From the NCBI GenBank assembly GCA_964187785.1, contig OZ076409.1:24368001-24432000 (forward strand): 64,000 nt of DNA. The letters are read 5' to 3'. Below are positions 8,279-63,722 of this stretch, in pieces. Position 1 is the stretch's first letter. Every line of letters begins with the position of its first letter. The notes below the pieces were generated by a model. That model saw only the letters and a program-made list of their open reading frames with translations, ran no database searches and was not told where the DNA came from. The stretch comes from Amphiscolops sp. MND2022 (taxonomy: Eukaryota). The position numbers and the translations under genes were made by a program.

Positions 8279-9644
8279 CCCGTACTGAGACTCCATGGCA
8301 TTCCATCCATGGCCATGGATGGTCCATGGCAGTTCCATCCCTGGCCAGGCCTGGTCCATGGATGGACCAGGGATGGCAATCGCCACTTTTATCCCTGGCC
8401 AGGGATGGACCATCCCTGGCCAGGCTTGGAAACCAAAAGTCCGGAAAGCTCAAAACAGCTTACAGAAGCTCCGTTTTTTGAAATTTTGAGTCGTCTTTGA
8501 ATCAACGTAAGATTAAAACGCTGCAATGCCCTAGTCAAAATTGCCGAAAAAATTTCTTTTCTTCACCATAATCTGAAATTGTTTTAGTCAATTGTATCAT
8601 TTGATGGGGGACTCTTCAATTCGTCGGACATTCAATCCGTCGAACACGTATTAATTTAGCGACCATGGTATGACGTATTGGAATGAATTGATTTCGGCCA
8701 ATCAAAATCGAGCATTCAAAATTACGATAACGTAGTCAGATATGTTCACATACCCCTAGTGCCCTAAATGCAGGAGCGAAGCGAAGCGGAGCGACGTGCC
8801 ATATGGCCATTCCTCAATGTTGCTACTTGGCGAAGGGAGCGAAGCGACCGAGCCATACAACAAATATGTTAATCGCCACAAAATATAACCAAATGAAAAT
8901 AATCGCTGATATGGAATTCTTTCGACGCATTGAATAGCTTTGCATTTTTCGACAATTTGAATGTTCGACGAATTGAAGTTGCACCCATTTGATGAAACAA
9001 TTTAAAACAATTTGGAAACAATGCTGTTTTTCAGAGAATTTTGTTCCGGCCGGAACCAATGATGATTCCGGCCGGAACCGGAACTTTTTTGAAATCCGGC
9101 CGGACCGGAATTCCGGAACATCCCCAGACATGGGTATAATTGGAGAAGCAAAAAAACCATGACATGTATCAAGAATAAATTCAAAACTAAAATCAGAAAT
9201 TTGAAAAAGGTATTTTTCTCAAAAACGCCCGGTAAAAAGTACACTGTCGACACTGGAGAAGCTAGAAAGGTTTTAAAAAGCTAAAAGCACATTTGTCGAT
9301 AAATCTTAGAAAAAAGGAAAAATCGCCCATTTCTGACCTTTTTAGACCATTCGTGGCTAATTCTCTATGACAGTGACTAGACGTTATTCCTTTAGACGTT
9401 ATTCGCGCCCCTAGCCAATTCAAATTTTGCACTTACTAACGTACATTTCGAACTTTCGCACTTCGAACGAATTTTTGTTCGAAAAATTTTTCGAAACTCC
9501 ATCGGTGGCCAGTGGTGGACCATCCATGTACCATCCATGGCCATCGATGGAATTTGCAATGACCACCTACAAATTGGATCCATTGGTGGCCAGGCCTGGA
9601 CCATCCATGGCCATGGATGGAATGCCATGGAGTCTCAGTACGGG
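8279..9644. mobile_element. Non-autonomous TIR DNA transposon, CCC...GGG ends, 2-bp TSD (CMC/EnSpm-like)
   Basis: ~48-bp perfect TIR CCCGTACTGAGACTCCATGGCATTCCATCCATGGCCATGGATGGTCCA, TT on both flanks, CCATGG-rich subterminal repeats. Superfamily is inferred from termini and TSD only. Confidence 0.85.
8607..8985. mobile_element. MITE with 9-bp TSD (Mutator-like), nested
   Basis: TSD CATTTGATG at 8598-8606 and 8986-8994; imperfect TIR GG...CTTCAATTCGTCG(G/A)ACATTCAA. Confidence 0.75.
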
Positions 9645-14692: not shown

Positions 14693-15842
14693 AGTATGCG
14701 GAAAACTCGTCAAAAACAACTCGCCAAATGCAACTCGTCGAAATTAAAGGACGGAAAATGGTCGAAAATTAACTCGTCGAATAATAATTAGTGCGAACTC
14801 GTCGAATAAGTGCAGATTACCCTCAGGGATTATCCAGTGCTAATTATGGATTAAATTTCCTTAATTGATGCGTGAAATTTTAAGTTTTCCCTTATTATAG
14901 CTTTTTAGTCGGCGCTTCATGAAGTGAAACGCGACTATTATAGTGACTCTTTTTTTTCTATCCACACGAACTGACCAAAATAGTTCTACAAAAGTTCTAC
15001 AAAATATTATTGCATCAAAATGCACTATTTGGTCTAGCGAACTGAACCAAAAAAGTTTTTCCTGTTTTTCCGCGTAACATACCATACCGGGCGAGACCAA
15101 AGACTCCCCCTTTCATTTTTTTCGGCACTGCGAGACATTTTTTTCGGAATTTTTTTCTTCGGAATTTTTTTCCTCAAACGGTCCCCCCTGCATTTTTTTG
15201 ATGTTTTGCGACAGAATGGATGTTGAAAAATCCCAAAGGGTCCCCCCTTTCAGTTTTTTTTCGGCATTGTGAGATTTTTTCCCGAAAATGAAAATTTTTG
15301 TTTTCTTCAATTTTTTCATGTTTTGCGACAGAATTGATGTTGAAAAACCTCAAAGGGTCCACCCTTTCAGTTTTTCGGCATTGTGAGACTTTAGCGCGCC
15401 AGGGGCTCGCGCTAGCGAGCCCCGGCACGCCACTCAGTCCATTTTTTTGAGTATGTAATTTTTTCGAAAAAAAATTTTTTCAAAAATTTTCGATTTTCGA
15501 GTACTGTAAAAGAGTACTTGACACTTGGAAGTCTTTTTGCTATTTTTGAGCCTTGGATATGGCGCCGACTTGGGCCGGTCCCGGCTTGTTTAGTTATATA
15601 ATTACTTGAAATGTTTCACTTTTATAGTTACAGTGTAATACTTCATAATACGTTAGACCTTTATGACACAGTACGATCACAAAGTTAGCGCTATATTCGT
15701 CGGAGAGTTTGCCACCAGAGAATTTTCGGCAAGTTGCTTTTCGACGAGCTTTCCGCTCAGTATTTTCGACCAATTGTTTTCGGCGAGTTGTTTTCGGCGA
15801 GTTGTTTTCGACGAGTTGTTTTCGACGAGTTTTCCTAGATTC
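14693..15842. mobile_element. MITE with 9-bp TSD (Mutator-like) and short CAACTCGTCGAAAA repeats; hosts a HINE
   Basis: TSD TTTTTATTT at 14684-14692 and 15843-15851; inverted ends GGAAAACTCGTC(A/G)AAAACAACTCG. Confidence 0.7.
14902..15590 (+). mobile_element. Non-autonomous Helentron/Helitron2-type element (HINE family A)
   Basis: 5' TTTTTAGTCGGCGC; 3' GCGCCGACT + hairpin GCCG-GTCC-CGGC + TTGTT; internal AAAGGGTCCCCC / TTTTCGGCATTGTGAGAC repeats. Confidence 0.75.
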
Positions 15843-19529: not shown

Positions 19530-22500
19530 GTTGCGGACTCCCTGTTTCAGAAATTCAAAATAAAAATCAAGGGTTCCAAACAGAAAATTGTAGACTTGAA
19601 GATAATTAACGAGCTTGTTGACCTTGACTACCTTGAATTTTCTTGGTCACAGCATAAGTCGTCATAAATTGTTCATAATGCAATCATCTACGTCTCATGA
19701 CAATCAAAATGGCATTTAATTTTTTTTGCAACACTGTTTACATCCAAGATCAATCCGTATCTACCAACAGCGGTTTCTTCGACATTGTGAGACTTTTTTC
19801 CCAAAATTTTTTGATGTCGCCAAAGAGTCCCCTCTTTGGTCATTCTGATTTTCTGCACCCAACTCGATAAAAAAGGGTCCCTCTTCTGCGTTTTTCGGCA
19901 TTGTGAAACTTCTTGAAAATGTTTATTTATGCTTGCAAATGTAGAGGAAAGACCAAAGGGTCCCCCTCTTCGGTTTTGTTTCGGTACTATGAACTTTTCT
20001 GAAGTTTTTGAAACAACCGAGTTGCCATCCTTCCATTTTTTAGCAGAAACAGCTTTTTGTGAGCAATGAGGGCTCTTTCGATTTTTCGGCACTATGCGAC
20101 TAATAAAAGACATTTTCAGAAAAAAATTGAAACCAAAAAAAGTTTTTCCCACTCAATTTTTTGAGGTTGTCTATCAAGGAAATTCGTTTTCGAAGCTTGT
20201 GGGTGACATCTTCGATCATTGTTTGGTCCTGTGGTACTGATGAGAGTTTTCTTAATAACTGTGGAAAACACCTGTGGTTTTTCGGCACTAAGCGATTTTT
20301 TTCGAAAAAAAAATCGATTCGGTCAAAGGGTACCCAGTGTAAAAACTCTTGAAACTGTTGCCAAGATCTTGCATATTCTTACATATTCCCGTTTACTCTT
20401 GAAATTCTTGATAAGATCTTGTTTATTCTTGCTTCACACAAACCTCTTGAAGCTCTTGATAGTATTCTTGGTAAGAGTCTTATCAAGAGTGTCAAGAGAA
20501 TGAAAGTTGTAAAACAAACAGCAATTTTGTTTACAAGTACTTTGCTGTTGTTCGCACTACCAGCTACACTATCATTCTTTGAAATATTGGATATAGGACA
20601 ACACAATGTAGTGAATTTCAGAACGTGATAGCTTGGTTGGTAGCGCGAAAAGCTGCGGCATAATAGGTACGCTGATCAAGCTGCAGTTGGCGTCGGTTTT
20701 TGTTTGTTTTCATTCACTTTTGTCAGTTCATCTCTTGAATTTCTTGGCACGATCTTGCAAGATCTTGCAAATTCGTGGATTTCTTACCAGGAGTTGCAAG
20801 AGTTTTTACACTGGGTACCCCTTCATTTCTAAAGAAGTTCATGGCTTTGAAAAAGGTGTTTTGCGAGCGTAAAGCTCTTTTTTCGGCAATTTGATACTTT
20901 TTCCGAAGAGGTAGGTTTTGAAATTTTTTTCAAAAAAATTGGGTTCTCTGATGTTTCCAATCATCCAATCAGAAAAAAAAACGGTTTTTAAGTCTTCCCT
21001 TCGGGTGTTTTTTGGCACAGATAATGTGATATACATGTAATGTAAATTTGACATTTGTGTCTTTTTTTCGTAGTCAAAAAAGTTTCTCCTGGTTTTTCGG
21101 GACTATAAGACTTTGTTTGGAAGAAACAAAATTTAACATATACGTTTTTCTGATGTTCAGAAAAATCTATACGTTTTAGTTCAGAAAAAAATATATTTTC
21201 GAGTCTAAAGGGAACCTTTTGGCCCCCGATTATTTGAAACCCTTTGCTCTTTTTGAACCTCGAACGGGGCGCCGACTTGGGCCGCTCCCGTCTTGTTCTC
21301 CTATTGAATTACTTTCATACGTTGCGGACTCCCTGTTTCAGAAATTCAAAATAAAAATCGAGGGTTCCAAACAGAAAATTGTAGACTTGAAGACAATTAA
21401 CGAGCTTGTTGACCTTGACTACCTTGAATTTTCTTGGTCACAGCATAAATCGTCATAAATTGTTCATAATGCAATCATCTACGTCTCATGACAATCAAAA
21501 TGGCATTTAAATTTTTTTGCAACACTGTTTACATCCAAGATCAATCCGTATCTACCAACAGCGGTTTCTTCGACATTGTGAGACTTTTTTCCCAAAATTT
21601 TTTGATGTCGCCAAAGAGTCCCCTCTTTGGTCATTCTGATTTTCTGCACCCAACTCGATAAAAAAGGGTCCCTCTTCTGCGTTTTTCGGCATTGTGAAAC
21701 TTCTTGAAAATGTTTATTTATGCTTGCAAATGTAGAGGAAAGACCAAAGGGTCCCCCTCTTCGGTTTTGTTTCGGTACTATGAACTTTTCTGAAGTTTTT
21801 GAAACAACCGAGTTGCCATCCTTCCATTTTTTAGCAGAAACAGCTTTTTGTGAGCAATGAGGGCTCTTTCGATTTTTCGGCACTATGCGACTAATAAAAG
21901 ACATTTTCAGAAAAAAATTGAAACCAAAAAAAGTTTTTCCCACTCAATTTTTTGAGGTTGTCTATCAAGGAAATTCGTTTTCGAAGCTTGTGGGTGACAT
22001 CTTCGATCATTGTTTGGTCCTGTGGTACTGATGAGAGTTTTCTTAATAACTGTGGAAAACACCTGTGGTTTTTCGGCACTAAGCGATTTTTTTCGAAAAA
22101 AAAAATCGATTCGGTCAAAGGGTACCCAGTGTAAAAACTCTTGAAACTGTTGCCAAGATCTTGCATATTCTTACATATTCCCGTTTACTCTTGAAATTCT
22201 TGATAAGATCTTGTTTATTCTTGCTTCACACAAACCTCTTGAAGCTCTTGATAGTATTCTTGGTAAGAGTCTTATCAAGAGTGTCAAGAGAATGAAAGTT
22301 GTAAAACAAACAGCAATTTTGTTTACAAGTACTTTGCTGTTGTTCGCACTACCAGCTACACTATCATTCTTTGAAATATTGGATATAGGACAACACAATG
22401 TAGTGAATTTCAGAACGTGATAGCTTGGTTGGTAGCGCGAAAAGCTGCGGCATAATAGGTACGCTGATCAAGCTGCAGTTGGCGTCGGTTTTTGTTTGTT

Positions 22501-25500
22501 TTCATTCACTTTTGTCAGTTCATCTCTTGAATTTCTTGGCACGATCTTGCAAGATCTTGCAAATTCGTGGATTTCTTACCAAGAGTTGCAAGAGTTTTTA
22601 CACTGGGTACCCCTTCATTTCTAAAGAAGTTCATGGCTTTGAAAAAGGTGTTTTGCGAGCGTAAAGCTCTTTTTTCGGCAATTTGATACTTTTTCCGAAG
22701 AGGTAGGTTTTGAAATTTTTTTCAAAAAAATTGGGTTCTCTGATGTTTCCAATCATCCAATCAGAAAAAAAACGGTTTTTAAGTCTTCCCTTCGGGTGTT
22801 TTTTGGCACAGATAATGTGATATACATGTAATGTAAATTTGACATTTGTGTCTTTTTTTCGTAGTCAAAAAAGTTTCTCCTGGTTTTTCGGGACTATAAG
22901 ACTTTGTTTGGAAGAAACAAAATTTAACATATACGTTTTTCTGATGTTCAGAAAAATCTATACGTTTTAGTTCAGAAAAAAATATATTTTCGAGTCTAAA
23001 GGGAACCTTTTGGCCCCCGATTATTTGAAACCCTTTGCTCTTTTTGAACCTCGAACGGGGCGCCGACTTGGGCCGCTCCCGTCTTGTTCTCCTATTGAAT
23101 TACTTTCATACGTTGCGGACTCCCTGTTTCAGAAATTCAAAATAAAAATCGAGGGTTCCAAACAGAAAATTGTAGACTTGAAGACAATTAACGAGCTTGT
23201 TGACCTTGACTACCTTGAATTTTCTTGGTCACAGCATAAATCGTCATAAATTGTTCATAATGCAATCATCTACGTCTCATGACAATCAAAATGGCATTTA
23301 AATTTTTTTGCAACACTGTTTACATCCATATCAATCCGTATCTACCAACAGCGGTTTCTTCGACATTGTGAGACTTTTGCCCCAAAATTTTTTGATGTCG
23401 CCAAAGAGTCCCCTCTTTGGTCATTCTGATTTTCTGCACCCAACTCGATAAAAAAGGGTCCCTCTTCTGCGTTTTTCGGCATTGTGAAACTTCTTGAAAA
23501 TGTTTATTTATGCTTGCAAATGTAGAGGAAAGACCAAAGGGTCCCCCCTCTTCGGTTTTGTTTCGGTACTATGAACTTTTCTGAAGTTTTTGAAACAACC
23601 GAGTTGCCATCCTTCCCTTTTTTAGCAGAAACAGCTTTTTGTGAGCAATGAGGGCTCCTTCGATTTTTCGGCACTATGCGACTAATAAAAGACATTTTCA
23701 GAAAAAAATTGAAACCAAAAAAAGTTTTTCCCACTCAATTTTTTGAGGTTGTCTATCAAGGAAATTCGTTTTCGAAGCTTGTGGGTGACATCTTCGATCA
23801 TTGTTTGGTCCTGTGGTACTGATGAGAGTTTTCTTAATAACTGTGGAAAACACCTGTGGTTTTTCGGCACTAAGCGATTTTTTTCGAAAAAAAAAATCGA
23901 TTCGGTCAAAGGGTACCCAGTGTAAAAACTCTTGAAACTGTTGCCAAGATCTTGCATATTCTTACATATTCCCGTTTACTCTTGAAATTCTTGATAAGAT
24001 CTTGTTTATTCTTGCTTCACACAAACCTCTTGAAGCTCTTGATAGTATTCTTGGTAAGAGTCTTATCAAGAGTGTCAAGAGAATGAAAGTTGTAAAACAA
24101 ACAGCAATTTTGTTTACAAGTACTTTGCTGTTGTTCGCACTACCAGCTACACTATCATTCTTTGAAATATTGGATATAGGACAACACAATGTAGTGAATT
24201 TCAGAACGTGATAGCTTGGTTGGTAGCGCGAAAAGCTGCGGCATAATAGGTACGCTGATCAAGCTGCAGTTGGCGTCGGTTTTTGTTTGTTTTCATTCAC
24301 TTTTGTCAGTTCATCTCTTGAATTTCTTGGCACGATCTTGCAAGATCTTGCAAATTCGTGGATTTCTTACCAAGAGTTGCAAGAGTTTTTACACTGGGTA
24401 CCCCTTCATTTCTAAAGAAGTTCATGGCTTTGAAAAAGGTGTTTTGCGAGCGTAAAGCTCTTTTTTCGGCAATTTGATACTTTTTCCGAAGAGGTAGGTT
24501 TTGAAATTTTTTTCAAAAAAATTGGGTTCTCTGATGTTTCCAATCATCCAATCAGAAAAAAAACGGTTTTTAAGTCTTCCCTTCGGGTGTTTTTTGGCAC
24601 AGATAATGTGATATACATGTAATGTAAATTTGACATTTGTGTCTTTTTTTCGTAGTCAAAAAAGTTTCTCCTGGTTTTTCGGGACTATAAGACTTTGTTT
24701 GGAAGAAACAAAATTTAACATATACGTTTTTCTGATGTTCAGAAAAATCTATACGTTTTAGTTCAGAAAAAAATATATTTTCGAGTCTAAAGGGAACCTT
24801 TTGGCCCCCGATTATTTGAAACCCTTTGCTCTTTTTGAACCTCGAACGGGGCGCCGACTTGGGCCGCTCCCGTCTTGTTCTCCTATTGAATTACTTTCAT
24901 ACGTTGCGGACTCCCTGTTTCAGAAATTCAAAATAAAAATCGAGGGTTCCAAACAGAAAATTGTAGACTTGAAGACAATTAACGAGCTTGTTGACCTTGA
25001 CTACCTTGAATTTTCTTGGTCACAGCATAAATCGTCATAAATTGTTCATAATGCAATCATCTACGTCTCATGACAATCAAAATGGCATTTAAATTTTTTT
25101 GCAACACTGTTTACATCCATATCAATCCGTATCTACCAACAGCGGTTTCTTCGACATTGTGAGACTTTTGCCCCAAAATTTTTTGATGTCGCCAAAGAGT
25201 CCCCTCTTTGGTCATTCTGATTTTCTGCACCCAACTCGATAAAAAAGGGTCCCTCTTCTGCGTTTTTCGGCATTGTGAAACTTCTTGAAAATGTTTATTT
25301 ATGCTTGCAAATGTAGAGGAAAGACCAAAGGGTCCCCCCTCTTCGGTTTTGTTTCGGTACTATGAACTTTTCTGAAGTTTTTGAAACAACCGAGTTGCCA
25401 TCCTTCCCTTTTTTAGCAGAAACAGCTTTTTGTGAGCAATGAGGGCTCCTTCGATTTTTCGGCACTATGCGACTAATAAAAGACATTTTCAGAAAAAAAA

Positions 25501-26703
25501 TTGAAACCAAAAAAAAAGTTTTTCCAACTCAATTTTTTGAGGTTGTCTATCAAGGAAATTCGTTTTCGAAGCTTGTGGGTGACATCTTCGATCATTGTTT
25601 GGTCCTGTGGTACTGATGAGAGTTCTCTTAATAACTGTGAAAAACACCTGTGGTTTTTCGGCACTAAGCGATTTTTTTCGAAAAAAAAATTGATTCGGTC
25701 AAAGGGTACCCAGTGTAAAAACTCTTGAAACTGTTGCCAAGATCTTGCATATTCTTACATATTCCCGTTTACTCTTGAAATTCTTGATAAGATCTTGTTT
25801 ATTCTTGCTTCACACAAACCTCTTGAAGCTCTTGATAGTATTCTTGGTAAGAGTCTTATCAAGAGTGTCAAGAGAATGAAAGTTGTAAAACAAACAGCAA
25901 TTTTGTTTACAAGTACTTTGCTGTTGTTCGCACTACCAGCTACACTATCATTCTTTGAAATATTGGATATAGGACAACACAATGTAGTGAATTTCAGAAC
26001 GTGATAGCTTGGTTGGTAGCGCGAAAAGCTGCGGCATAATAGGTACGCTGATCAAGCTGCAGTTGGCGTCGGTTTTTGTTTGTTTTCATTCACTTTTGTC
26101 AGTTCATCTCTTGAATTTCTTGGCACGATCTTGCAAGATCTTGCAAATTCGTGGATTTCTTACCAAGAGTTGCAAGAGTTTTTACACTGGGTACCCCTTC
26201 ATTTCTAAAGAAGTTCATGGCTTTGAAAAAGGTGTTTTGCGAGCGTAAAGCTCTTTTTTCGGCAATTTGATACTTTTTCCGAAGAGGTAGGTTTTGAACT
26301 TTTTTTCAAAAAAAATGGGTTCTCTGATGTTTCCAATCATCCAATCAGAAAAAAAACGGTTTTTAAGTCTTCCCTTCGGGTGTTTTTTGGCACAGATAAT
26401 GTGATATACATGTAATGTAATTTTGACATTTGTGTCTTTTTTTCGTAGTCAAAAAAGTTTCTCCTGGTTTTTCGGGACTATAAGACTTTGTTTGGAAGAA
26501 AAAAATTTAACATATACGTTTTTCTGATGTTCAGAAAAATCTATACGTTTTCAGTTCAGAAAAAAAAACATATTTTCGAGTCTAAAGGGTACCTTTTGGC
26601 CCCCGATTATTTGAAACCCTTTGCTCTTTTTGAACCTTGAACGGGGCGCCGACTTGGGCCGCTCCCGTCTTGTTCTCCTATTGAATTACTTTCATACGTT
26701 GCG
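19530..26703. repeat. Tandem array of four ~1791-bp near-identical units (HINE body and 3' end plus nested MITE)
   Basis: Unit start GTTGCGGACTCC at 19530, 21321, 23112 and 24903; terminal GTTGCG at 26698. Confidence 0.97.
20333..20815. mobile_element. MITE with CCCAGTG...CACTGGG ends and TA duplication (also 22125-22607, 23916-24398, 25709-26191)
   Basis: TIR CCCAGTGTAAAAACTCTTG(A/C)AACT; splits an AAAGGG-TA-CCCC motif of the host repeat. Confidence 0.85.
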
Positions 26704-43493: not shown

Positions 43494-44080
43494 TCATCGC
43501 CACAAGTAGCCTTTGCCAGAAGAAGTGGTGCCAACCAACATGTCCAAATAAGGATGAAAAGCGTTCCTGCAACAGATACTTTCGTTTCCAGTAAACGTCA
43601 TCACCTGCAGACGACTTGAAGTTGAAAAAACTTCGATTTTGCGATAAGAATCCATGCTGCCCACTATAAACAAGTCTTCGCATTTCGGGTGCCAAATTGC
43701 CTGGAATGGAGCCAGCCAACGCCCAGTGTGGTTATCGTGATGAAGTTTCAGCGTTTCTTTAATTGCATCGGGACCCAAATAACTTGAGTCAAAAACTCGG
43801 ATGTAATCATCACTGCATGTGGTGACTATTTTGTCTCCTGTCACAGGGGAGAAGAAAGCACCATTCGCAACTTTCCCATGGTACAGTTCATCGATACATG
43901 ACCTCTTTGTAGTTCTGATATCCCATATTTTCACAGATAGGTAATCGGAAGCTAGAATGTACGGCTTTGTTGGATGTGCCGAGATACATTTGATGGGTTT
44001 GAGTCCGTTCGTGAACTTCGCCACAGGATTTGCTTGTGAATCTGAGTTACCTTCATCATTCGCGTCACCAGTATTTGTAC
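43494..44080 (-). CDS. WDR76: WD repeat-containing protein 76 (CMR1 homologue), exon 2
   Basis: WD40 motifs; HDNHTGRWLAPFQAIWHP and NAFHP...TSSGK are characteristic of WDR76/Cmr1; acceptor GCTCAG in phase with exon 1. Confidence 0.9.
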
Positions 44081-44087
44081 CTGAGCA

Positions 44088-44436
44088 GAGAATTGACTCG
44101 CGTACTTCAAATCAAGTTATTTTTTGGATTGTGTACAAAAACTTGGATATTCAAGATCATGATGAAACGAAAATTCAAGTTTTTTCTACGCCTGATGCGA
44201 CATAATACGCAGAAACTGATTTCCATATTTTCCACCAAAACGCAAACTTTCTGAATGATAGTCAAAAATGTATAAAAAATATTCCTCTAAGTGAATTTGT
44301 ACAGTATTTTTGAAGGCAAAGTCCGCTTGTTGATCACGGAATCGGATAGCGTTGTTTTCTCAGTACTTTGTCATATTCGTGTGGCGGTACAAAAAAGTGT
44401 AATTCAATATGTGGTGCATGACCGACTTCAATTCAC
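44088..44436. mobile_element. Putative TIR element forming the WDR76 intron (introner-like), 10-bp TSD
   Basis: TACCTGAGCA duplicated at 44078-44087 and 44437-44446; ends GAGAATTGACTCG vs (reverse complement) GTGAATTGAAGTCG. Confidence 0.6.
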
Positions 44437-44439
44437 TAC

Positions 44440-45691
44440 CTGAGCATCTTGGATCTATGATGAAGATCTTTCCCAATTGCTCACCAGCACAAATAGTTTG
44501 TTTATCGTTGAGAAAGTCAAACCAGTGGATCTCGTTGTACTCAGTGAAACTCCTGGGATCCGGATTTTTGCAGACTGTTGTAAATTCGGATGCTACAAGA
44601 TCAATGCACTTCAAAGTACCATCGTAGCTGCAAGTGTACAATTTGGTGGAATCACTGGGACAAAAATCAATATGGCGCACAGGCTGGCTGTGAGGTTGAG
44701 TGAGAAACAGGCCATTTGACTCCTTGTTAACGTCCCAGAAACCCAACCCTCCGAATTTGTCAGCACTGGCGATTAAAATCTTATCTCTACTGGGATGAAA
44801 CTTCGCATCGTAAATTCTCCCCGAGCAGCATTTGGCAATATCAGAATCCGCAATTGAAAGTTTTCCCAACCGTTCCAAAACTTCGTCTTTACTAGAATGA
44901 TTTGTTGTTGCATCTTTGGCTTCAGAAGCCGCAATGACTTCTTTAAAACATGCCTTCAAGTTTTCATCAGTTGTAACATCGTCCACACTTTGCAACTGAC
45001 CCGAGAAAGGTCTTGACGTCACGACTCGTGTACGTTTGACTGTAACTGGATCCTCGTAAGTGACAGGAAGAGCCTCAAACTTATAATCAGGTTCCACAAA
45101 ACTTTCCCTCAACCTTGCATTTATTAACCTTGCCGAACTTCTTCGAGGTAGCACTTCTTCGGTGTACATAACTTTTTTGGTCACGCTTTTGATTGTCTTC
45201 GGTTTGGGCTTAACGACTGGCGGAGCTAACACTGATGCAGAAGAATCCAATTCCAACTCAGTCAGAAACTTCATGTTTTCTTCCAAATTCTTTCGCCGTT
45301 GCATTTCAAAAAACGACAGTTTTTCCTCAACTTTGGGCTTAGCTGTTTCTATTGACACCGTTCCCTCAAGTAAAGATTTATCTTCTTTTTTGACTAGAAC
45401 AGAGTTGTCCCCGGGCATATTCAGCTTCTCGGAAACATTAGAGCCGGGGAAAACGTTTTCAATTTCTTCTGGTTTCATCTGCTTGGAGTCGAGCTTAGGC
45501 TTTTTTGGAAGTATCACATCACTATTAGAGTTCGTTCGGTCTTGTAGTTGCAATTCACTGAAAGGCGCACATATGAATTCTTTTTCAATTTTGACAGTCG
45601 AGACAGAATCAGAGCCATCGTGCTCAACAGGTAAGACATTTGCAAGGCCATAAGTTGAGTCTCTTAACTTACGTCTAGTAGTGGGAGGCAT
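44440..45691 (-). CDS. WDR76: WDR76 exon 1 (start at MPPTTRRK; in-frame ATGs also at 45718 and 45733)
   Basis: LSFFEMQRRKNLEEN and PRRSSARL N-terminal motifs; RIYDAKFHP, ADKFG, CSYDGT WD40 motifs; donor TCAG|GTAGTG. Confidence 0.9.
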
Positions 45692-46066
45692 GACAAGATC
45701 TAGAATGGAATCAGACATGAGTTTCAATATCATAATACATGATAGCTGATACAAAATTTGGGATCAGCAAAACTGTTGCAACTGCGAAAACTCCCAAAAA
45801 AACAAAAGGTGAATCAATCTTTTTCACGTAGATTTGCCGGAGGAAAAACTTGTTTCAAAAAGTTCCGGAAGAAAAAATTTCTATTTTCGACAGACTTGGC
45901 GGCAACTTTCTATTTTGGATTTCGCGAATGGTCAAAAATGAAGAATAAGGTACAATTGCTTTTCGGATTCACTTCTTTTGAATGAGAAAAACAGTTCTTT
46001 CAGAACTTTCAGTAATCTAAAATCAATACTTGCTTTTTGACAAGATCTTTTGTTTTGTTTGGAGAG

Positions 46067-46760: not shown

Positions 46761-48002
46761 TTAGACTACACTTTCTTGTTGCTGGAGACGAATCTGTTCC
46801 AATCTAAAACTGCACAAAACGATGAACGAATAAGCAACAACTATATCATCATTAGAGTGAGATTCAATTTCAACAGTCTTCTGCACAAAAATGTCATCGT
46901 TAGAATCTGGGTTGCTAAACACAGGCAGGATTTGTTCAACCGTGAGGTGATCAGAAAACAATGTCAGAGCTGAATACTGGTAGACTTTATGTTCAACCCT
47001 CGAATCAAAACTTTGAATCAGAATCTCGCCGCAAAAGTTGTAGACAGCTTTCAATCTATCTTCCTTGTCGCCAAGGTAACGCCAACTGAGCGACAAAACC
47101 AATGGTTCCTCCTTATGGGTTTCCGATTTCGCAACAGTTGTTGATAGCGAAACTTTAAAAAGATCATCATCGTGTCTCATGTCGAAACTCCCCCTCCATT
47201 CACTAACATTTCGACCCACGACGATGCAAGAAAAAGGAATCTTGAACTCTTGAGTTTCTTTTTTTAAAATCACAGTATCAATTTTCTCGGCCAAATTATG
47301 AATAGCTCTTATTGCACGTTCGTCTCCAAGGAAGGACTCAACAACATTCACATCGACTTCACTTGCAATATCATCTGCGAACCTTTTCACCGCTTCTAAT
47401 TCGTCTATTTTTCCGACTGCCTTCAAACTCTCATTCAAAGTGTATTTCAGGTAAGTGTATCGCTGAATTGTGCGCTCCGCCAGCCAAACTTTCAACGCAC
47501 ACTTTTCCATAACCTTTTCAGCCATTTGATGAACCTCTTTTCTTCGCTTCAATATTGGCCCCATATCCTTCTTGACTTGGTTGTGCAAATATTTCTTGTA
47601 CAGGGCCAATGAATGGTCTTCATGACAGGCTTCAAAGCAAGTGGTGCACAGTTTCATATTACATGTATTGCACCAGAAATGGACAATCATGTCAGGATGT
47701 ATCAAACACTTGGGTCCTTCAATCTCAACTTTTCTCGGCTTTTTTCTAGGAAACTTGAGTAGACTCAAACTGATGAGACCTTTTCTGGTGCGCGGAGCAT
47801 CTACTTTACAAAAGGCACATTTGAAGGATGTGTTAAAGGACATGTTTTCCTTCTCGATGATCGATTGACATGACTTGGGGGATCCACAACACGAATGCCC
47901 ACAGGGAAGCTTGTGCGATTCTTTCACGGGTTCAGTGCAAACTGGGCACTGGCTTAAATTCAAATCAGTCGACCGTGAGGGTGCCAGATATTCATAAGCC
48001 AT
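46761..48002 (-). CDS. RING / B-box / coiled-coil (TRIM-like) E3 ligase, intronless CDS
   Basis: CPVC..CGHSCC..C..CAFC RING, CLIH..CNTC...CTTC...HEDH B-box2, helical region, beta-rich C-terminus; ATG at 48002, 413 aa. Confidence 0.88.
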   Translation of the reverse strand: MAYEYLAPSRSTDLNLSQCPVCTEPVKESHKLPCGHSCCGSPKSCQSIIEKENMSFNTSFKCAFCKVDAPRTRKGLISLSLLKFPRKKPRKVEIEGPKCLIHPDMIVHFWCNTCNMKLCTTCFEACHEDHSLALYKKYLHNQVKKDMGPILKRRKEVHQMAEKVMEKCALKVWLAERTIQRYTYLKYTLNESLKAVGKIDELEAVKRFADDIASEVDVNVVESFLGDERAIRAIHNLAEKIDTVILKKETQEFKIPFSCIVVGRNVSEWRGSFDMRHDDDLFKVSLSTTVAKSETHKEEPLVLSLSWRYLGDKEDRLKAVYNFCGEILIQSFDSRVEHKVYQYSALTLFSDHLTVEQILPVFSNPDSNDDIFVQKTVEIESHSNDDIVVAYSFIVLCSFRLEQIRLQQQESVV

Positions 48003-51048: not shown

Positions 51049-51791
51049 AGTGAAGAAATGCCTAAACTCCAATTCCTCAATTTTTTCGAACTTCAAAACC
51101 TCATAAATCAACATTAAAGCCGAATTTCGAAAATCCGGGATGTAAAAATCTCCGCAAGAGTCTCCTGAATGCAATAATACCCCTCACAACTCTGACGGAC
51201 TGCTCATCTCCGATGGCGTTGATTTTGAATACAATCACCCTTAACTATAGCACAGAATCTCATCAAATTTTGAATAACTTCCAAAAAGAATGAAACTTGA
51301 ATTACTCATCAAAAAGAGCTTCACATGATATGAGTGCTTTGTAGTATTATCCATTTGGATTTCATTTTTTGTTTATCAATGACTCACAATCAACTGCTAC
51401 TGCTGAGTGTGACTTCCATAGTTGACTTCATTCATCGAACAATTCCTTGCAGTGATTGATTTCTTCAGCGTTTATTAGTCATCATTGACTAACTAAACTT
51501 ATAGGGAACTACGCAGCCTCCAATTCTCACATCAAAAGCATCAACAGATAGATGTCAACTATCTGATTATTGGTTGGAGATATTTACATCCTTGATTGGA
51601 CTCAATCGATTGGAGTATTCTTTCAATCCATCTGTTTAGCCTACTTGAAGAGGACAAAACACATGGGCAGATTATAATAATCAATGACGATTCATTTGTG
51701 CTTTCTATTGGACTCTGAACTTGTCATGCACAATTTACATCACATGTACTATCGAAAATATTGAAGCTGCTGGCTCCAAGGGGGCCAAAAA
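51049..51791 (+). repeat. Extra copy of the BEL element's 3'UTR + PPT directly upstream of its 5' LTR
   Basis: Direct repeat of 58225-58967 (offset 7176). Confidence 0.95.
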
Positions 51792-51948
51792 TGTTGAAGC
51801 TCAAATATTCTGTCAATGAAGCAAAACCGCGTGAAAGAATAAAGACACGTTAAAAACAATTTGATACTTTACTTAGACTTGTTCATGCTTTTTCATTGTT
51901 TCTCTTTGCAAATTTCTGATCAATTCACGCTCTTCAAAACTCATTAAA

Positions 51949-52965
51949 ACACAGAGGCGAAGCCGTGCTTCGCAAACACTTGCGAACTTTTGAAGAAAAC
52001 CAAATAAGCAATATCATACGGAAAACCAAGGGTAAAAGGAGATTAAAATTTCATCAATTTTACAGCGCCAAAAAAACCCGAAAGGATACGCGTAAGCCTC
52101 GAAAACCATTCTTCCCCAACTGAAAACAGCAAAAAACTCATTCTTTAAACGGAAAACGGAAAACCTTAAACAGAAAATAGAAGAAAAAAATTTCAAAATT
52201 TTTCGAAAACATTTTTGATGGTCTCCGGTAAGTCGCAAAGCCTTGAGGAGTCCTCTCGCAAAACGTTTCGTTTCTTGTAAAAATTGAGCAGGGGCTTCGG
52301 TGAAAACAAATTTTAAAAAAGTCGCATAGAAAAAAGATCGGTCTTTAAAAAAACGGTCTTTTGATACTAAAAATTGAGAAAAAAATTTCCGAAATTTTTC
52401 GATTTTTTTTAAGTTTCCGCTAAGTCGCATAGTGCCGAAAAATGTGAAAAAGGGACCCTTTAGGATTTTATAACATTCGTTCTGTTGCAAGGTATCAAAA
52501 AATTGAAAGGAGGACGCTCTGGGGACATTTAAAAAATTTTGAAAAAAATTAGGGAGTCTAAAAAATTTTCGAAAAAAAATAGAATTTTGAACAGTCTCAT
52601 AGTGCCGAAAATTCTGAAAAAAGGGACCCTTTAGGATTTTTTAACATTCGTTCTCTTGCAAAAAAATCAAAAAAAAATTGAAAGGAGGACTCTTTGGGGA
52701 CATTTAAAAAATTTCGAAAAAAAGTCTCACAAAGCCGAAAAGTCTCATAGTGCCGAAAAAAGTCAGAACCTTCTGCTTCGGACTACTTGTAAAAAAATTA
52801 GCGCATACCCACGGGTTCGAACACGAAACCTCTGGGTTGAAAAGCAAGCATCTTACCACTAGACCACGAACGCGTGAAACGTGCGAGTTGCCGCGTGAAA
52901 TCAGAGAGTTGTCGCGCGGAAAAGCACCCGCACTTTCCCATAACAATTGCTTATCGCAAGTGTAA
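51949..52965 (-). mobile_element. HINE family B element inserted in the BEL 5' LTR
   Basis: Inverted pair ACACTTGCGA (51976-51985) / TCGCAAGTGT (52954-52963); hairpin GCGAAGC-CGT-GCTTCGC (51957-51973); empty site visible in the 3' LTR. Confidence 0.85.
52801..52874 (-). pseudogene. tRNA-derived cassette inside HINE family B
   Basis: GCGTTCGTGGTCTAGTGGTAAG...GTTCGAACCC: A and B boxes, with an unpaired anticodon stem. Confidence 0.65.
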
Positions 52966-56100: not shown

Positions 56101-58225
56101 TGTGTTGAGCCAGAAAAAAGTTCCACTTCCAGTTATATCTTTTCACTGATGCCAGTGAGAACGCTTATGCGGCGACTGTGTATAGTCGTTTTCAATCATC
56201 AGATGGATGAGTTTCAGTTCAACTTCCAGTTGCGGAAACACGTGTAGCGCCTGTGAAGGAAGTCAGTTTGCCTCGGTTGGAGTTGTGCGGTGCACAATTG
56301 GGAACTCGGCTTATCAAGACAGTTATTGAATCACTACAATCCCTGGCCATTTCCATTGATTCAGTTCACGCTTGGACTGAATCAACAATTGTATTGCAAT
56401 GGCTCAATCAACTCTTACGAACTTGGGCGACGTTTGTCGAAAACCGAGTTTCGGAAATCCAAGATTTTCTCCCAAAGAACAGGTGGAACCACGTCCCCTC
56501 TCAAAATAATCCTGCTGACTTGTCGGCTCGCGGCGGAGCAGATGTCAGTCTCTTTTGCAAACTAAACTTTGGTGGAATAGACTAGACTTCTCGAACTCTT
56601 TATAAGTCGAATGGCCACCACAACCCCAATTATCAAGTACCCCACCGGAGAGTCGATGCAAACAAACTGCTGGGAACAATTGTGCGTCAAACTTGAGTAC
56701 AGCCACAGAATCAACTGAATTATGGGATACAGAACGTTTCTCCAGCTTTAACAAATAACTCCGGCTAATTGCTTTCGCGCAAATATCCATACAATTAATG
56801 AAAAGGCACGATCGTTCGAAGCACATATCAGCAACAGATTTGGAAATTGCAAAGAATTGTTTTACGAAGTCATCAAAAATCTTTTTCCCGAAAGAAATGA
56901 ACGCTTTAGAAACAGGATTGAGTTTGAAAAAGGATAGTACTTTGTTTACTCAACCTGTCACCCTTCTACGACACTGAGACCGAAACAATCAGAGTAGGTA
57001 GTTGTTTGGCACAGGGACAGTTTAGAGACTCCAAAAAATTTCCATATTTGATAAGCAAAGCGTCCAACTAGCTGTCCTGATTTTGAGGCATTATTATGAA
57101 GCGACTCTTCATGGCGGCGGGCTGCTTACGCTCAACACTAGTCGTGAAGAATTCTGGATACTAATGGCAGAGATACAACGAGAAGAGTTATCAAGAATTG
57201 TGTTCTATGCAGCAGACTCGAAAACAAACCTCCGATGCAAATGATGGCGGATCTCCCAATGGAACGAATTACAATTGCGAAACCTTTCCAAACAGATTGA
57301 CCAGGATTGACCAGGACCAATCGTCACCGAACCAAAAGTAAAAACATACAACGCAGTTTTTGTATGTTTTGTAATCAAAGCAGTACATATTGAACTTGTA
57401 GAAAATTTGACTAAGGAAGCTTGCATGTCAGCCAAAAAACGATTTACTGCCAGACGAGGATTGCCACAAAAACTTTTCAGTGACAATGGACGAAATTTTA
57501 TCGGAACAAGGAATGACATGATACGACTACAGGAATTAATAAACAAAGATGGCAATAAGAAATCAATTGGCAATTTCATTTCGCAACTAGGAAAAGAATG
57601 GCTGACCATTCCCCCTAGAGCACCGCACTTTGGAGGCCTATGGCAAGCTGCTATTAAAAGCATGAAACGCCATCTGCGACGAAAAGTTGGATTGTATATT
57701 CTTTCATTTGAAGAACTTAACACAGTTGTGCTACGAATCGAATCAATTCTGAATTCCAGACCATTGGCAGCTATGTCTAATGACCCCAACGATCTGCAGC
57801 CTATAACCCCAGCACATTTTCTACTAGGAAGGCCAGCCAATGATATCCCTTCGGCAACTGAAAACATGGATGAAAATATCTCATTGACTCAGAGGTTCAA
57901 ACTGTTAGAACGAATCTGAAGGTCCTTTTGGAAGTCCTGGTACAGAGACTATCTGGTAATCTCCAAGTACGAAAAATGGCTAGCTTCGGGACCATCTTTT
58001 GCGGAAGGCGATTTAGTGCTGATTGCTGAAGATGATCTCCCACCTCTTAGATGGCAAATGGCTCGAATTGAGAAATTGTATGCTGGAAACGATATTAGCC
58101 GAGTTGTGACGTTGAAAACATCAAACGGAAGCTTGATTCGACCTGTTGTAAAAATCAGAAGGCTCCCCATTCAAAATCCCAACCAGTCGCCAGCTTTAGT
58201 AACCCTCGCTCACATAAATAGTTGA
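53105..58225 (+). pseudogene. BEL/Pao gag-pol pseudogene
   Basis: Many frameshifts and stops; gag, Cys-His knuckles, protease, RT, RNase H and integrase in BEL order. Confidence 0.9.
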
Positions 58226-59700
58226 GTGAAGAAATGCCTAAACTCCATTTCCTCAATTTTTTCGAACTTCAAAACCTCATAAATCAACATTAAAGCCGAA
58301 TTTCGAAAATCCGGGATGTAAAAATCTCCGCAAGAGTCTCCTGAATGCAATAATACCCCTCACAACTCTGACGGACTGCTCATCTCCGATGGCGTTGATT
58401 TTGAATACAATCACCCTTAACTATAGCACAGAATCTCATCAAATTTTGAATAACTTCCAAAAAGAATGAAACTTGAATTACTCATCAAAAAGAGCTTCAC
58501 ATGATATGAGTGCTTTGTAGTATTATCCATTTGGATTTCATTTTTTGTTTATCAATGACTCACAATCAACTGCTACTGCTGAGTGTGACTTCCATAGTTG
58601 ACTTCATTCATCGAACAATTCCTTGCAGTGATTGATTTCTTCAGCGTTTATTAGTCATCATTGACTAACTAAACTTATAGGGAACTACGCAGCCTCCAAT
58701 TCTCACATCAAAAGCATCAACAGATAGATGTCAACTATCTGATTATTGGTTGGAGATATTTACATCCTTGATTGGACTCAATCGATTGGAGTATTCTTTC
58801 AATCCATCTGTTTAGCCTACTTGAAGAGGACAAAACACATGGGCAGATTATAATAATCAATGACGATTCATTTGTGCTTTCTATTGGACTCTGAACTTGT
58901 CATGCACAATTTACATCACATGTACTATCGAAAATATTGAAGCTGCTGGCTCCAAGGGGGCCGAAAATGTTAAAGCTCAAATATTCTGTCAATGAAGCAA
59001 AACCGCGTGAAAGAATAAAGACACGTTAAAAACAATTTAATACTTTACTTCGACTTGTTCACGCTTTTTCATTGTTTCTCTTTGCAAATTTCTGATCAAT
59101 TCACGCTCTTCAAAACTCACTAAAAACTAAATTCGCGCAATAATAAATAAATCTTCTTTTTATACGACTTTTCGACAAAGTCTACAACAACGACTACTTA
59201 ATGTAATTTTTCGAAACTCACTACCCAATCTCAATTTCCATACATTTGTTTTTATACATTTTTTCAATCCGCTCGAACTGACCAAAAAATCTTAAGAAAG
59301 TTCAATATCTAACGAAGACCCAAAGGGTAAAATAAACCCCTTTGATTTTTCAACATTTGGATTATAAAGATTCATGAGACCGAAAGAGCTGAACTATTTT
59401 TTTGGGATTTTTTCCCGTCTCTCATGATTTCTATATTTTCAGTTACGGGAAGTTAGTTTAAAGCTTTTTGGACACGAAAACTTCCTCAAAAACGACCTAA
59501 GTATATTTAAAACTCTGCTGGTTGAGCCTTGGGCGGGCGTCGATGTTCTCGGCTTTTCTTTTATCAAAAATCGAAAACGAAAATTCGATTGTCCCCAACA
59601 CCAAACTACTCTTTTAAAACATTGAGTGTCAGCCTCGTTAAATCGTAATTATCACGGGGATTTATACATTTCTGGCCGTAGGGTAAAAAGATGTTCTAAC

Positions 59701-60340: not shown

Positions 60341-61044
60341 CTGCAACACAAGTTGCCTATGTTGTGTAAAACGGCGTTCGTTAAATAGCTACATTGAGGT
60401 ATTTTACTCGTACGGCGACAACTCATATCAAGCGATAACTTATATCAATCGGAATTCATGTCAGAAAATTAAAATCTACATGAGAAAATTTATTCCAAAT
60501 ATTTCATTAGATTATAGAGAAAATTAGATAATAAAATAGTAAGAGTTCATGGTAAATATCAGTGTAACTTTGGAATTTCGAATTACAATTAATTATGTTT
60601 GTTAATAATTTGTTCTTGAAGTAAAATTTAGGTAGTTGTAACCTATTGGCAAACTTGATGAGTTCCTAGTTGATATGAATTATCGCTTAATGAGTTGTCG
60701 CTTTTTCAAATTGATATTAGTTGTCGCTTGATATGAGTTACCGCTATGACACGGGAATTTTTCAAAAAATGCTTAGTATTTTAAAAAATACTCATGATCT
60801 CTCAATTTTGGAACGTCTTTCAATTTCATCAGCGAATACGACAGCTGGTCAAATGACCCGCCATTGAGCATACATTGACTAAGTATGATTCAATAAGGAA
60901 CACATTTTAATGCCATCAACTGATCTGAAACCTGATTTCCAAACGTTTCAGTAAATTCGATCCATCTCTCATTTCGAAATGGACAAACCAGCTTCAAAAG
61001 TTGGTCAAAGATCAATACACTTCAATTATTGTTAAAGTTGGCAC

Positions 61045-61856: not shown

Positions 61857-61897
61857 CGAGTAGCTATCTAGCGGGCTCAAGTGAGAATGTTCCATCA

Positions 61898-63171
61898 CCT
61901 CGCATTACGATACATATGCCGCAAAAGTGGAATTTATCATCAAGCGTGAAGTGTATTTTCCGTAAAACGAGAGCGAGCCGTATTCTAGTCAAACAGTGCA
62001 TCGTGTTCTTTGCGGATTGTGATACACAGAGTATTCAGATATCATGTATCATTGAGCGTAATTAGAGAAAAGTGGAAACCAGTAAAGAATTTGAGTACAC
62101 ACCGTGAGTGAAAAAACTCCAAATGATGCTTCCATTCGTGTGTGAAGTGGAAACCAGTCAAAGTACGTAAATGTAGAGAATGTAAAGTAGTCATTTACTA
62201 TATTTTGATCACTACGCGTAACGCCAAATAACACAGTGTAACGAGCAAAACTCGTAACGCGTACCAGACTGTAATAAATGAATTGGACCTCTGATTGTAA
62301 AAAATGATTGGGACTCGATTGAAGGAGACCAAAATCTTCTGAACGAAAAAGTAATTTGGAAAACCGTAAAACTAGAAGTTTAATAAAATTTAAAGTTGAT
62401 TACAAACATTTTACAAAGTTGATTAATTTAAAGTTGATTACAAAGATCAATATGCAAAAACTTAGAAACTATGCATTTCACTACCGATTTCGATTCTAAC
62501 TCGTTTTAGTTCAAACTTCTAAAGCCTTGAGTGTTGGAAAAAATTAGTTTTTAATCTTTCAGACGCTTTTTCAACAAAAGTATCCACTAAAATGTTTTTT
62601 ATAGCAAAACTTTGAAAAGAAACCTCCTTGAACAGGACATTTCAGAGAAAGAAACTTGAATGCAATGTATTAAGATAGGGCATAAAATTATTTTTGAAAG
62701 AAGCCTTATATAATTACAGTTTTCTCAAGTTTTCCGTAAACAAAACATATCGTCAGTAGTGGATGGATTAATCTCTATCAACATTCCAAAGTCAAGTGCG
62801 TCTCTGTCAAGTGCGTCTATGAGACGTCTAATTTAGCAAAAATTTGCTCCTAGATCAAAATTTAGTAGTGAATACAAGTTGTTGAAAGTGATATTACAAA
62901 GCTCGAAAACTGTTTGCAAAACTGATTCTGAGGTGTTTTCACAAATTTAATAATATTTGATAAGGCGTTTTTTGATCACCTTGAAAATCACTCGGGTTTC
63001 GAGCTAATTTATTTTCAGTCCAAATTATTTTTTAAAACCAGGGGTCCAATTCATTAATTACAGTATGGTATTTGAAATAAGAACGTTTTTACAGCGTTTT
63101 TATTGGCTGTTAATCGAGCTAGCAAGATCTTGCTAGTTCGTTGCGGCATATGTATCGTAATGCGTGAAAGG
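61898..63171. mobile_element. Non-autonomous TIR element with a nested TA-flanked MITE (62264-63068)
   Basis: 24-bp perfect IR CGCATTACGATACATATGCCGCAA (61901-61924 / 63141-63164), possible TCA TSD; inner IR CCA(G/T)ACTGTAAT(A/T)AATGAATTGGACC with TA flanks. Confidence 0.75.
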
Positions 63172-63722
63172 TCACTACGATCACTAAAATTCAACTTAAG
63201 CATTTTTACTTCTTAGATAGAATTGCTCATCGGACTAAAACCAATTTGTTTCAATTTCATAACATACATGCAAACAAGTACACCAACTTGAATTTCAGAA
63301 AAAAAGCCCCAGTCGGCAACACTCATAAAATGTGAACATGTCGCAAAAATTGGCAATATTTCACGTTTTTGAGTGTTTCGGTTAGACTCGGTTAACTGTT
63401 GAAACTATCAAAAAAACCGATTTTACAACAGACTTAATAGAGTGTTTCCGAATCCATGTCCAAACTGTTCAACCGATCATAACAGCATTTTAATGGCAAA
63501 ACTTCAATGGACTCTGGATATGAGAAAATCAGTTTCAACAAATAGGAAAAACGAAAAAAATAGCGGTATATCGTTTGAGCCTACAAGTAACACAGTCTAT
63601 ATGCGGTAATTTTTTCTAAAAAAAATCGATTCGTAAATAACCGTATCTATGAAATATGAAAGTCTTCTGTATCCAACTCTCTTTTGACATGAAAACATTT
63701 CAACAAAGCTGAATTATTAGAC

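Follow-up and report, generated by a model that had tools for sequence, protein, structure and literature searches.

A predicted intron in an acoel WDR76 gene with both splice sites inside a target-site duplication

The WDR76 gene on the minus strand of the window (the whole 64-kb stretch of DNA that was analysed) raises the question of how a gene that reads without interruption in other acoels came to carry a predicted intron bracketed by a direct repeat. The window is repeat-rich animal DNA with a GC content of 37.6% and holds decayed frames of LTR retrotransposons. The named relatives of the gene product are the 'WD repeat-containing protein 76-like' proteins of the acoels Convolutriloba macropyga (XP_075259160.1) and Symsagittifera roscoffensis (XP_063726350.1), to which the WD40 parts of the window protein are 52-65% identical; the source organism is thus neither of these two species, and very probably a further acoel. 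In per-exon trees (nine rows each, two outgroups), the window protein and the named acoel WDR76 proteins group together with support of 100/99. Exon 1, whose first in-frame ATG lies at 45733 and whose start matching the orthologue is probably at 45691, ends one base into a glycine codon, that is, in phase 1. Exon 2 is identical to the orthologous protein P0002 at 160 of 194 residues, with zero gaps. Neither exon contains a stop codon or a frameshift, and their GC content is 42-44%, as compared with 35% for the insert. Immediately upstream, on the same strand, lies an intronless gene of 413 amino acids (46764-48002, minus strand) with a B-box and a RING-like N-terminus. The features of the locus are collected in Table 1.

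Table 1. Features of the WDR76 locus, in window positions (a slash marks the predicted splice junction)
Feature	Position	Strand	Remarks
WDR76 coding exon 1	44440..45733	-	ORF and translation, WD40 match, WDR76-like homologues; 3' end corresponds to S400 of P0002
WDR76 coding exon 2	43494..44080	-	intact up to the stop codon
Predicted GT-AG intron, 359 nt, phase 1	44081..44439	-	predicted splicing: removal restores the frame, and the joined length equals that of the orthologue
Upstream copy of the 10-bp target duplication, TGCTCAG/GTA	44437..44446	-	supplies the donor GT (44439-44438)
Downstream copy of the 10-bp target duplication	44078..44087	-	source of the CAG acceptor (AG, 44082-44081); also contributes to the pyrimidine tract
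Inserted element, 349 bp, non-coding	44088..44436		351 bp (44087-44437) under an 8-bp duplication
Left terminal inverted repeat, GTGAATTGA	44428..44436	-	adjoins the repeat
Right terminal inverted repeat, GAGAATTGA, read inward	44088..44096	+	gene-strand TTCTC forms half of the pyrimidine tract
Branch-point-like TTGAT	44111..44115	-	A lies 32 nt before the intron end; a motif match only, to a vertebrate consensus
In-frame TGA if the insert is retained	44360..44362	-	protein truncated after a 26-residue read-through tail, as P0001 and P0010 end

The interval is delimited by the direct repeat TGCTCAGGTA, which occurs exactly at minus-strand positions 44446-44437 and 44087-44078 with a spacing of 359, just as the initial annotation had described. 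That annotation had also placed both splice sites at the AG/GT inside the repeat, so that splicing would restore the mRNA that existed before the insertion. This agrees with the effect of the predicted splice: cutting 359 nt within the repeat yields a single open frame from exon 1 to the stop codon at 43494-43496. As to chance, fixed-offset pairs of 10-mers in the repeat-masked window match 324 times per 45.9 million. Pairs that share AGGT provide a fairer control, and among the 850 AGGT-AGGT pairs lying 60-2000 bp apart, five reach at least 10 bp, the WDR76 pair included. The WDR76 repeat exceeds chance. Its perfection need not mean that it is extremely young: coding or splice constraint presumably holds most of its 20 bases.

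The state of the site in other acoels was read from the predicted proteins of relatives, not from DNA, and the protein search yielded seven matches to exon 1 among 2206 candidates and seven to exon 2 among 473. In the JGI contigs, none of 150 pattern matches for relatives of P0002 was confirmed. The closest orthologue, P0002 together with P0011 (on contigs of 97 kb and 448 kb), is 82-83% identical in the WD40 part and reads D-P-R-C-S-G-T-N-T-G unbroken across the site, with C-S-G-T present once. As exon 1 ends at S400 of P0002 and exon 2 begins at T402, the split glycine codon, corresponding to G401, is the sole residue between the exons, and no residue is gained or lost. Given that the orthologue is unbroken and holds the target peptide once, the repeat represents duplicated ancestral exon sequence. 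Four further acoel WDR76 clusters (P0003, P0004, P0016, and the fast-evolving paralogues P0005 and P0006 taken as one group) are uninterrupted and full-length.

Two of the matching proteins, P0001 and P0010, are products of the window gene itself. They read past the donor, continue into the insert and terminate with the 26-residue tail, and the ENA calls therefore look intron-blind. The two are alleles that both carry the insert; they differ at 2 of 452 residues, versus 9 of 595 and 6 of 597 in other allele pairs. For C. macropyga and S. roscoffensis, the RefSeq WDR76 proteins are identical letter for letter to the ENA entries (P0012 and P0021), so the coding sequence would be intronless in both species if the ENA call is ORF-based. 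WDR76 is a multi-exon gene in vertebrates, and against this background the apparently intronless C. macropyga and S. roscoffensis genes suggest wholesale intron loss in acoels before the gain described here. The loop that holds the insertion site exceeds that of C. macropyga, S. roscoffensis and mussel by about 16 residues, and the intron position is consequently without a clear counterpart in these species. The extra loop is shared by the two fast-evolving, uninterrupted WDR76 paralogues (P0005/P0013 and P0006/P0014), which group with the lineage of the window gene and P0002 (bootstrap 97-98%).

These comparisons bear on the simplest alternative, an ordinary old intron that was lost in the other acoels and whose flanks match by chance through the AG/GT splice consensus. 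In Drosophila, roughly one intron in four, conserved and gained alike, does have flanking repeats of at least 5 bp (Yenerall & Zhou 2012, PMC3443670), but given AGGT at both ends, just 4 of 849 other pairs reach 10 bp. Moreover, the terminal inverted repeat adjoins the direct repeat, and an old intron would require several independent losses at a position without a clear counterpart in the two named acoels or in mussel. We regard this explanation as extremely improbable. A lineage-specific insertion with target duplication is well supported by the protein alignments, and the initial annotation, which had proposed a recent insertion with both splice sites lying in its target duplication, finds its empty site in the closest orthologue at the protein level. 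It had named conservation in distant animals as the opposing case; the intron position proved to be conserved neither in other acoels nor in mussel.

We infer that the 359-nt interval is very probably spliced out. Among the 3038 coding 10-mers of WDR76 and its neighbour, AGGT is present in 63, YAGGTR in five and CAGGTA in none. With so few coding 10-mers carrying AGGT or YAGGTR, the retention of an insertion at CAG/GTA suggests selection for splicing. Of the 15 bases that precede the AG of the predicted acceptor, 11 are pyrimidines, contributed jointly by the terminal inverted repeat and the duplication, and the branch-point consensus in vertebrates is yUnAy. On its intronic side the donor (GTAGTG) is weak. 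Additional AGs lie 24 nt (AAG) and 16 nt (GAG) upstream of the acceptor; use of the AAG, with the acceptor at 44105, would add eight residues in frame, and a donor at 44436 (+3 nt) would likewise keep the frame. A strong donor-like sequence, AAG/GTAACT, is present in exon 2 (44051-44043, minus strand), 30 nt beyond the acceptor, where the sequence departs from that of the orthologue, and may be a cryptic donor. The spliced full-length form of the window protein is absent among the seven exon-1 and seven exon-2 protein matches, which has no bearing either way.

The condition of the exons is relevant to a further alternative, in which the insert is spliced poorly or not at all and the locus is a very young null allele truncated at the in-frame TGA, WDR76 being dispensable or backed by a paralogue. 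Mice null for Wdr76 are viable (PMC6336889). Private changes in exon 2 number 5-7 in the window gene versus 11-13 in P0002 (three outgroups), and exon 2 shows no relaxation. In the WD40 part of exon 1 the counts are 7-11 versus 3-4, an excess that does not fit neatly with strict constraint. Intact exons rule out only a gene whose death dates back more than about 2-5% neutral divergence: the chance that a dead gene stays free of stops is 44% at 1% neutral divergence and 1.6% at 5%. A disruptive insertion would nevertheless have to land on CAG/GTA by chance, a 0.2-2% event, and it must contend with the presence of the insert in both alleles and with exons that have no stop or frameshift and, in exon 2, no relaxation. 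We judge it quite unlikely.

The inverted ends of the 349-bp segment, which abut the repeat, match at 8 of 9 bases. Dinucleotide shuffling gave as good a match in 3 of 5000 trials, and random pairs drawn from the window did so in 55 of 200000. With a gapped, end-anchored score for terminal inverted repeats (TIRs), 0.31% of the random pairs do as well, as do 0.25% of the shuffles, and p is about 0.0003-0.003. The match ends after 9 bp, which is a minimal length. Of the imperfect inverted ends drawn by the initial annotation, this 8/9 core is real and above chance, but the version of 13-14 nt needs a gap and scores no better. Since the same diagonal also permits an 8-bp duplication, GCTCAGGT, with a 10-bp TIR (9 of 10 bases), the target-site duplication (TSD) is either 10 or 8 bp long; one copy cannot fix its register. 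A 6-bp TSD with ends starting in YAG is less parsimonious, as it needs four chance matches. A solo LTR was ruled out by inspection, with TG...CA ends in no register.

Rfam gave no matches to the insert, its fold is not unusual (z 0.48), and no tRNA was found in the whole window. An organelle origin was rejected: one frame free of TAA and TAG spans the insert, but such a frame also occurs in 288 of 3000 shuffles and in 419 of 1274 349-mers of the window. When five frames of the insert were searched against Pfam under table 5, no match reached E<0.1 (best E 0.18), which counts against organelle origin as well.

The initial annotation had likened the insert to the Mutator-like elements (MULEs). 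Mutator-like ends start with G, and the insert resembles these elements in its TSD of 10 or 8 bp and its G...C ends. MULEs typically carry TIRs of more than 100 bp and TSDs of 8-10 bp, an example being Muta1 of Aedes (PMC5225508), and 'GG/CC termini' have served as a Mutator criterion (PMC12130899). The long TIRs of Mutator-like elements, which often include subterminal tandem repeats, differ from the TIR of the insert, whose 9 bp fall far below the typical length; with a TSD that can also be read as 8 bp, membership among the Mutator-like elements is not supported. hAT ends start with CAG or TAG. hAT elements have TIRs of 5-27 bp and an 8-bp TSD (PMC10741241), and the reading of the insert with GCTCAGGT and a 10-bp TIR (9 of 10) fits the sizes of their non-autonomous members, although it needs one flanking base per side to match by chance and its ends begin with AG, not CAG or TAG. 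This 8-bp, hAT-like reading fits nearly as well.

Two other elements with 9-bp TSDs had been reported in the window, and both were found. The first (8607-8985) is 379 bp long and has a perfect 9-bp TSD, CATTTGATG, G...C ends and TIRs of about 38 bp; it is a better candidate for a Mutator-like MITE than the WDR76 insert. It is nested in a larger element (8279-9644) with 48-bp perfect inverted ends starting in CCC. The second (14693-15842) is 1150 bp long, with a low-complexity 9-bp TSD, TTTTTATTT, and TIRs of more than 100 bp formed by 14-bp subterminal tandem repeats, and is Foldback/Mutator-like. Both thus have TIRs unlike that of the insert, and neither shows homology to it (41-115 of 200 block shuffles score equally). 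The motif ACTTCAAWTC, common to the insert and the 8607-8985 element, is borderline, being matched in 6 of 100 shuffles, and the two do not align. Other repeats of the window include four head-to-tail units of 1.79 kb that are 98-99% identical (19530-26703), each with a segment of about 490 bp in which inverted repeats surround the palindrome GGGTACCC. A 901-bp direct repeat with 99.2% identity (51049-51949 and 58225-59125) encloses DUF1759 and Pao peptidase frames, and its copies are probably the LTRs of a young Pao/BEL element. Three intervals bounded by inverted repeats (60405-60760, 61890-63180 and 62262-63070) are without a clear long TSD, the last having TA at both ends.

Further copies of the insert were sought at several levels. 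Copies of the kind for which the initial annotation had suggested a genome-wide blastn did not appear in the 64-kb window, where the best blastn match had an E of 0.066. The best score of a loose local alignment in the window was 53, equalled by 4 of 20 block shuffles, and nhmmer detected the element itself alone. Two other matches to GTGAATTGA lie in the two copies of the 901-bp direct repeat and do not exceed chance, as 32 of 100 shuffles do equally well. An exact 24-nt pattern of the left end had no match in JGI metagenome contigs or in prokaryote genomes, an exact 29-nt pattern of the right end had none in viral contigs, and blastn of the insert against phages and plasmids found no match; the JGI, viral, prokaryote, phage and plasmid collections need not contain this animal. 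To approximate a genome-wide search, we used intron-blind protein calls, in which an exonic, near-identical copy in the same orientation would leave the read-through tail in one frame of three. A 40-residue query holding this tail, searched among proteins of 71-2000 amino acids, retrieved one candidate, the window gene itself. The filter is strict, given that P0002, which shares most of the 14 exon residues of the query, went undetected. A 55-residue frame of the opposite strand, searched against 1.84 billion representatives, gave two matches, both unrelated tandem-repeat translations with 34-36% identity. Such peptide searches detect only near-identical copies in called ORFs, one frame each. 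Their results speak to some extent against an exon-targeting family that is both large and young, whereas a small or diverged family would escape them.

The undescribed introner family suggested by the initial annotation accordingly finds no second copy, either in the window or as read-through peptides. As one of several copies making introns in this acoel, the insert would provide the pyrimidine tract and branch point from its right end and the splice dinucleotides from its TSD. Its anatomy does fit the 'co-opt both' class of introners (PMC9860276, Fig. 2E; PMC12130899), its right end does supply TTCTC and the TTGAT motif, the host is aquatic, and the acoel names tried were not found in the species list of PMC12130899. 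With the read-through tail matching only its own gene, the opposite-strand frame matching only unrelated repeats, and no copy within 64 kb, we hold membership in such a family to be unlikely.

The same lack of copies in the window and peptide searches, together with the minimal TIR, would also suit a repair event, in which end joining at a staggered double-strand break captured 349 bp of unrelated DNA and duplicated 10 bp, the filler being spliced via AG/GT and its inverted ends arising by chance; intron gains in Daphnia have been explained in this way. Repair-type gains likewise yield new single-copy introns with short direct repeats at their flanks, and repeats flank 43% of gained Daphnia introns (PMC3443670). 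Repair, however, predicts no inverted ends abutting the repeat, and here an 8/9 inverted match abuts both copies exactly (p about 0.0003-0.003). Furthermore, searches of the window, phages, plasmids, prokaryote genomes and JGI contigs revealed no donor, and the insert bears no sign of an organelle gene. Repair filler is a rather unlikely source, though the main rival as to origin.

The explanation that we prefer, at a probability of roughly 0.55, is the one-off insertion of a short non-autonomous DNA transposon into an intronless WDR76 gene, with the TSD giving both splice sites and the insert being spliced out. A Mutator-like or hAT-like element would have entered the gene after the split from the P0002 lineage. 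A transposase would have made a staggered cut across TGCTCAGGTA, and gap filling after the 349-bp insertion would have duplicated the 10 (or 8) bp containing CAG/GTA. The upstream copy may then have become the 5' splice site and the downstream copy the CAG of the 3' splice site, with pyrimidines and a branch-like motif contributed by the right end of the element. Splicing at AG/GT would remove the insert and one copy of the duplication and so return the ancestral mRNA, and we propose that the insertion was tolerated and spread for this reason. The event would have been an opportunistic one-off rather than the work of an intron-making family. The presence of DNA elements with 9-bp TSDs in the same window is in favour of a transposon, and in the collections searched the insert is tied to no element by a second copy, a transposase or a database match. 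A transposon origin is probable but weakly supported. Of the recent transposon-generated intron originally envisaged, the insertion and the origin of the predicted splice sites thus stand, while the transposon itself is represented by the 9-bp TIR only.

The mechanism has close precedents. Insertion into AGGT with duplication is a standard route of intron gain, with 35 events described in Oryza, Drosophila, Oikopleura and Zea (PMC3443670). As in those cases, the WDR76 TSD holds AG/GT, its copies form the donor and the acceptor, and the coding sequence is restored exactly; the WDR76 case differs in its host group (an acoel), in having no named transposon and in that its splicing is predicted only. 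Introners that co-opt both splice sites are illustrated by Florenciella (Gozashti et al. 2022, PMC9860276, Fig. 2E). In the 1,096-row family table of a later survey, the label 'co-opt both' occurs 595 times, the labels being automated and many rows being shown with 2-bp duplications (Gozashti et al. 2025, PMC12130899). Among the rows returned from that survey are a hAT family of Panicum virgatum that has an 8-bp TSD and bears the label 'co-opt both', and an Amoebophrya family whose final class is Mutator. The WDR76 insert shares with such introners a short non-coding element with TIR and TSD, splice sites taken from the insertion site, and an aquatic host. Introners, in contrast, form families of at least four similar introns, whereas the WDR76 insert is known as one copy, and its 10-bp duplication exceeds the range of 3-9 bp given for introners (PMC9860276). 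It works like a 'co-opt both' introner but is not fileable as an introner, with its one copy, or as a MULE, with its short TIR.

Among acoels, MULEs make up 5.7% of the genome of P. naikaiensis, and the description of that genome reports that introns composed solely of a transposable element were not found (PMC6451197). A survey of 835 animal and land-plant genomes detected introners in no more than two groups of animals (PMC9860276). The acoel genus names that we tried were absent from 12 of the 14 supplement files of PMC12130899, the species list included and files 13 and 14 left out, whereas the controls Styela and Macrostomum were found. Our literature search, to which most subscription papers were outside, returned no study of transposon-made introns in acoels. 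Within the literature searched, the WDR76 locus would be a new acoel case of an insertion-made intron, by a mechanism that is already known.

This mechanism is common among introners, and the locus alone is one more instance, which would become notable only if a family were found. It is doubtful, but conceivable, that a transposon family with short TIRs and a 10-bp TSD acts as an acoel introner at CAG/GT sites, bringing its own pyrimidine tract and branch point and re-introducing introns into intronless genes. If true, this introner family would be the first in Xenacoelomorpha by the literature searched and among few in animals. Animal introns of identifiable origin are scarce, and the WDR76 locus would offer a clean filled-versus-empty example of the AGGT route in an otherwise intronless acoel gene. 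Acoels, seemingly missing from the largest introner survey, may thus be a place to look.
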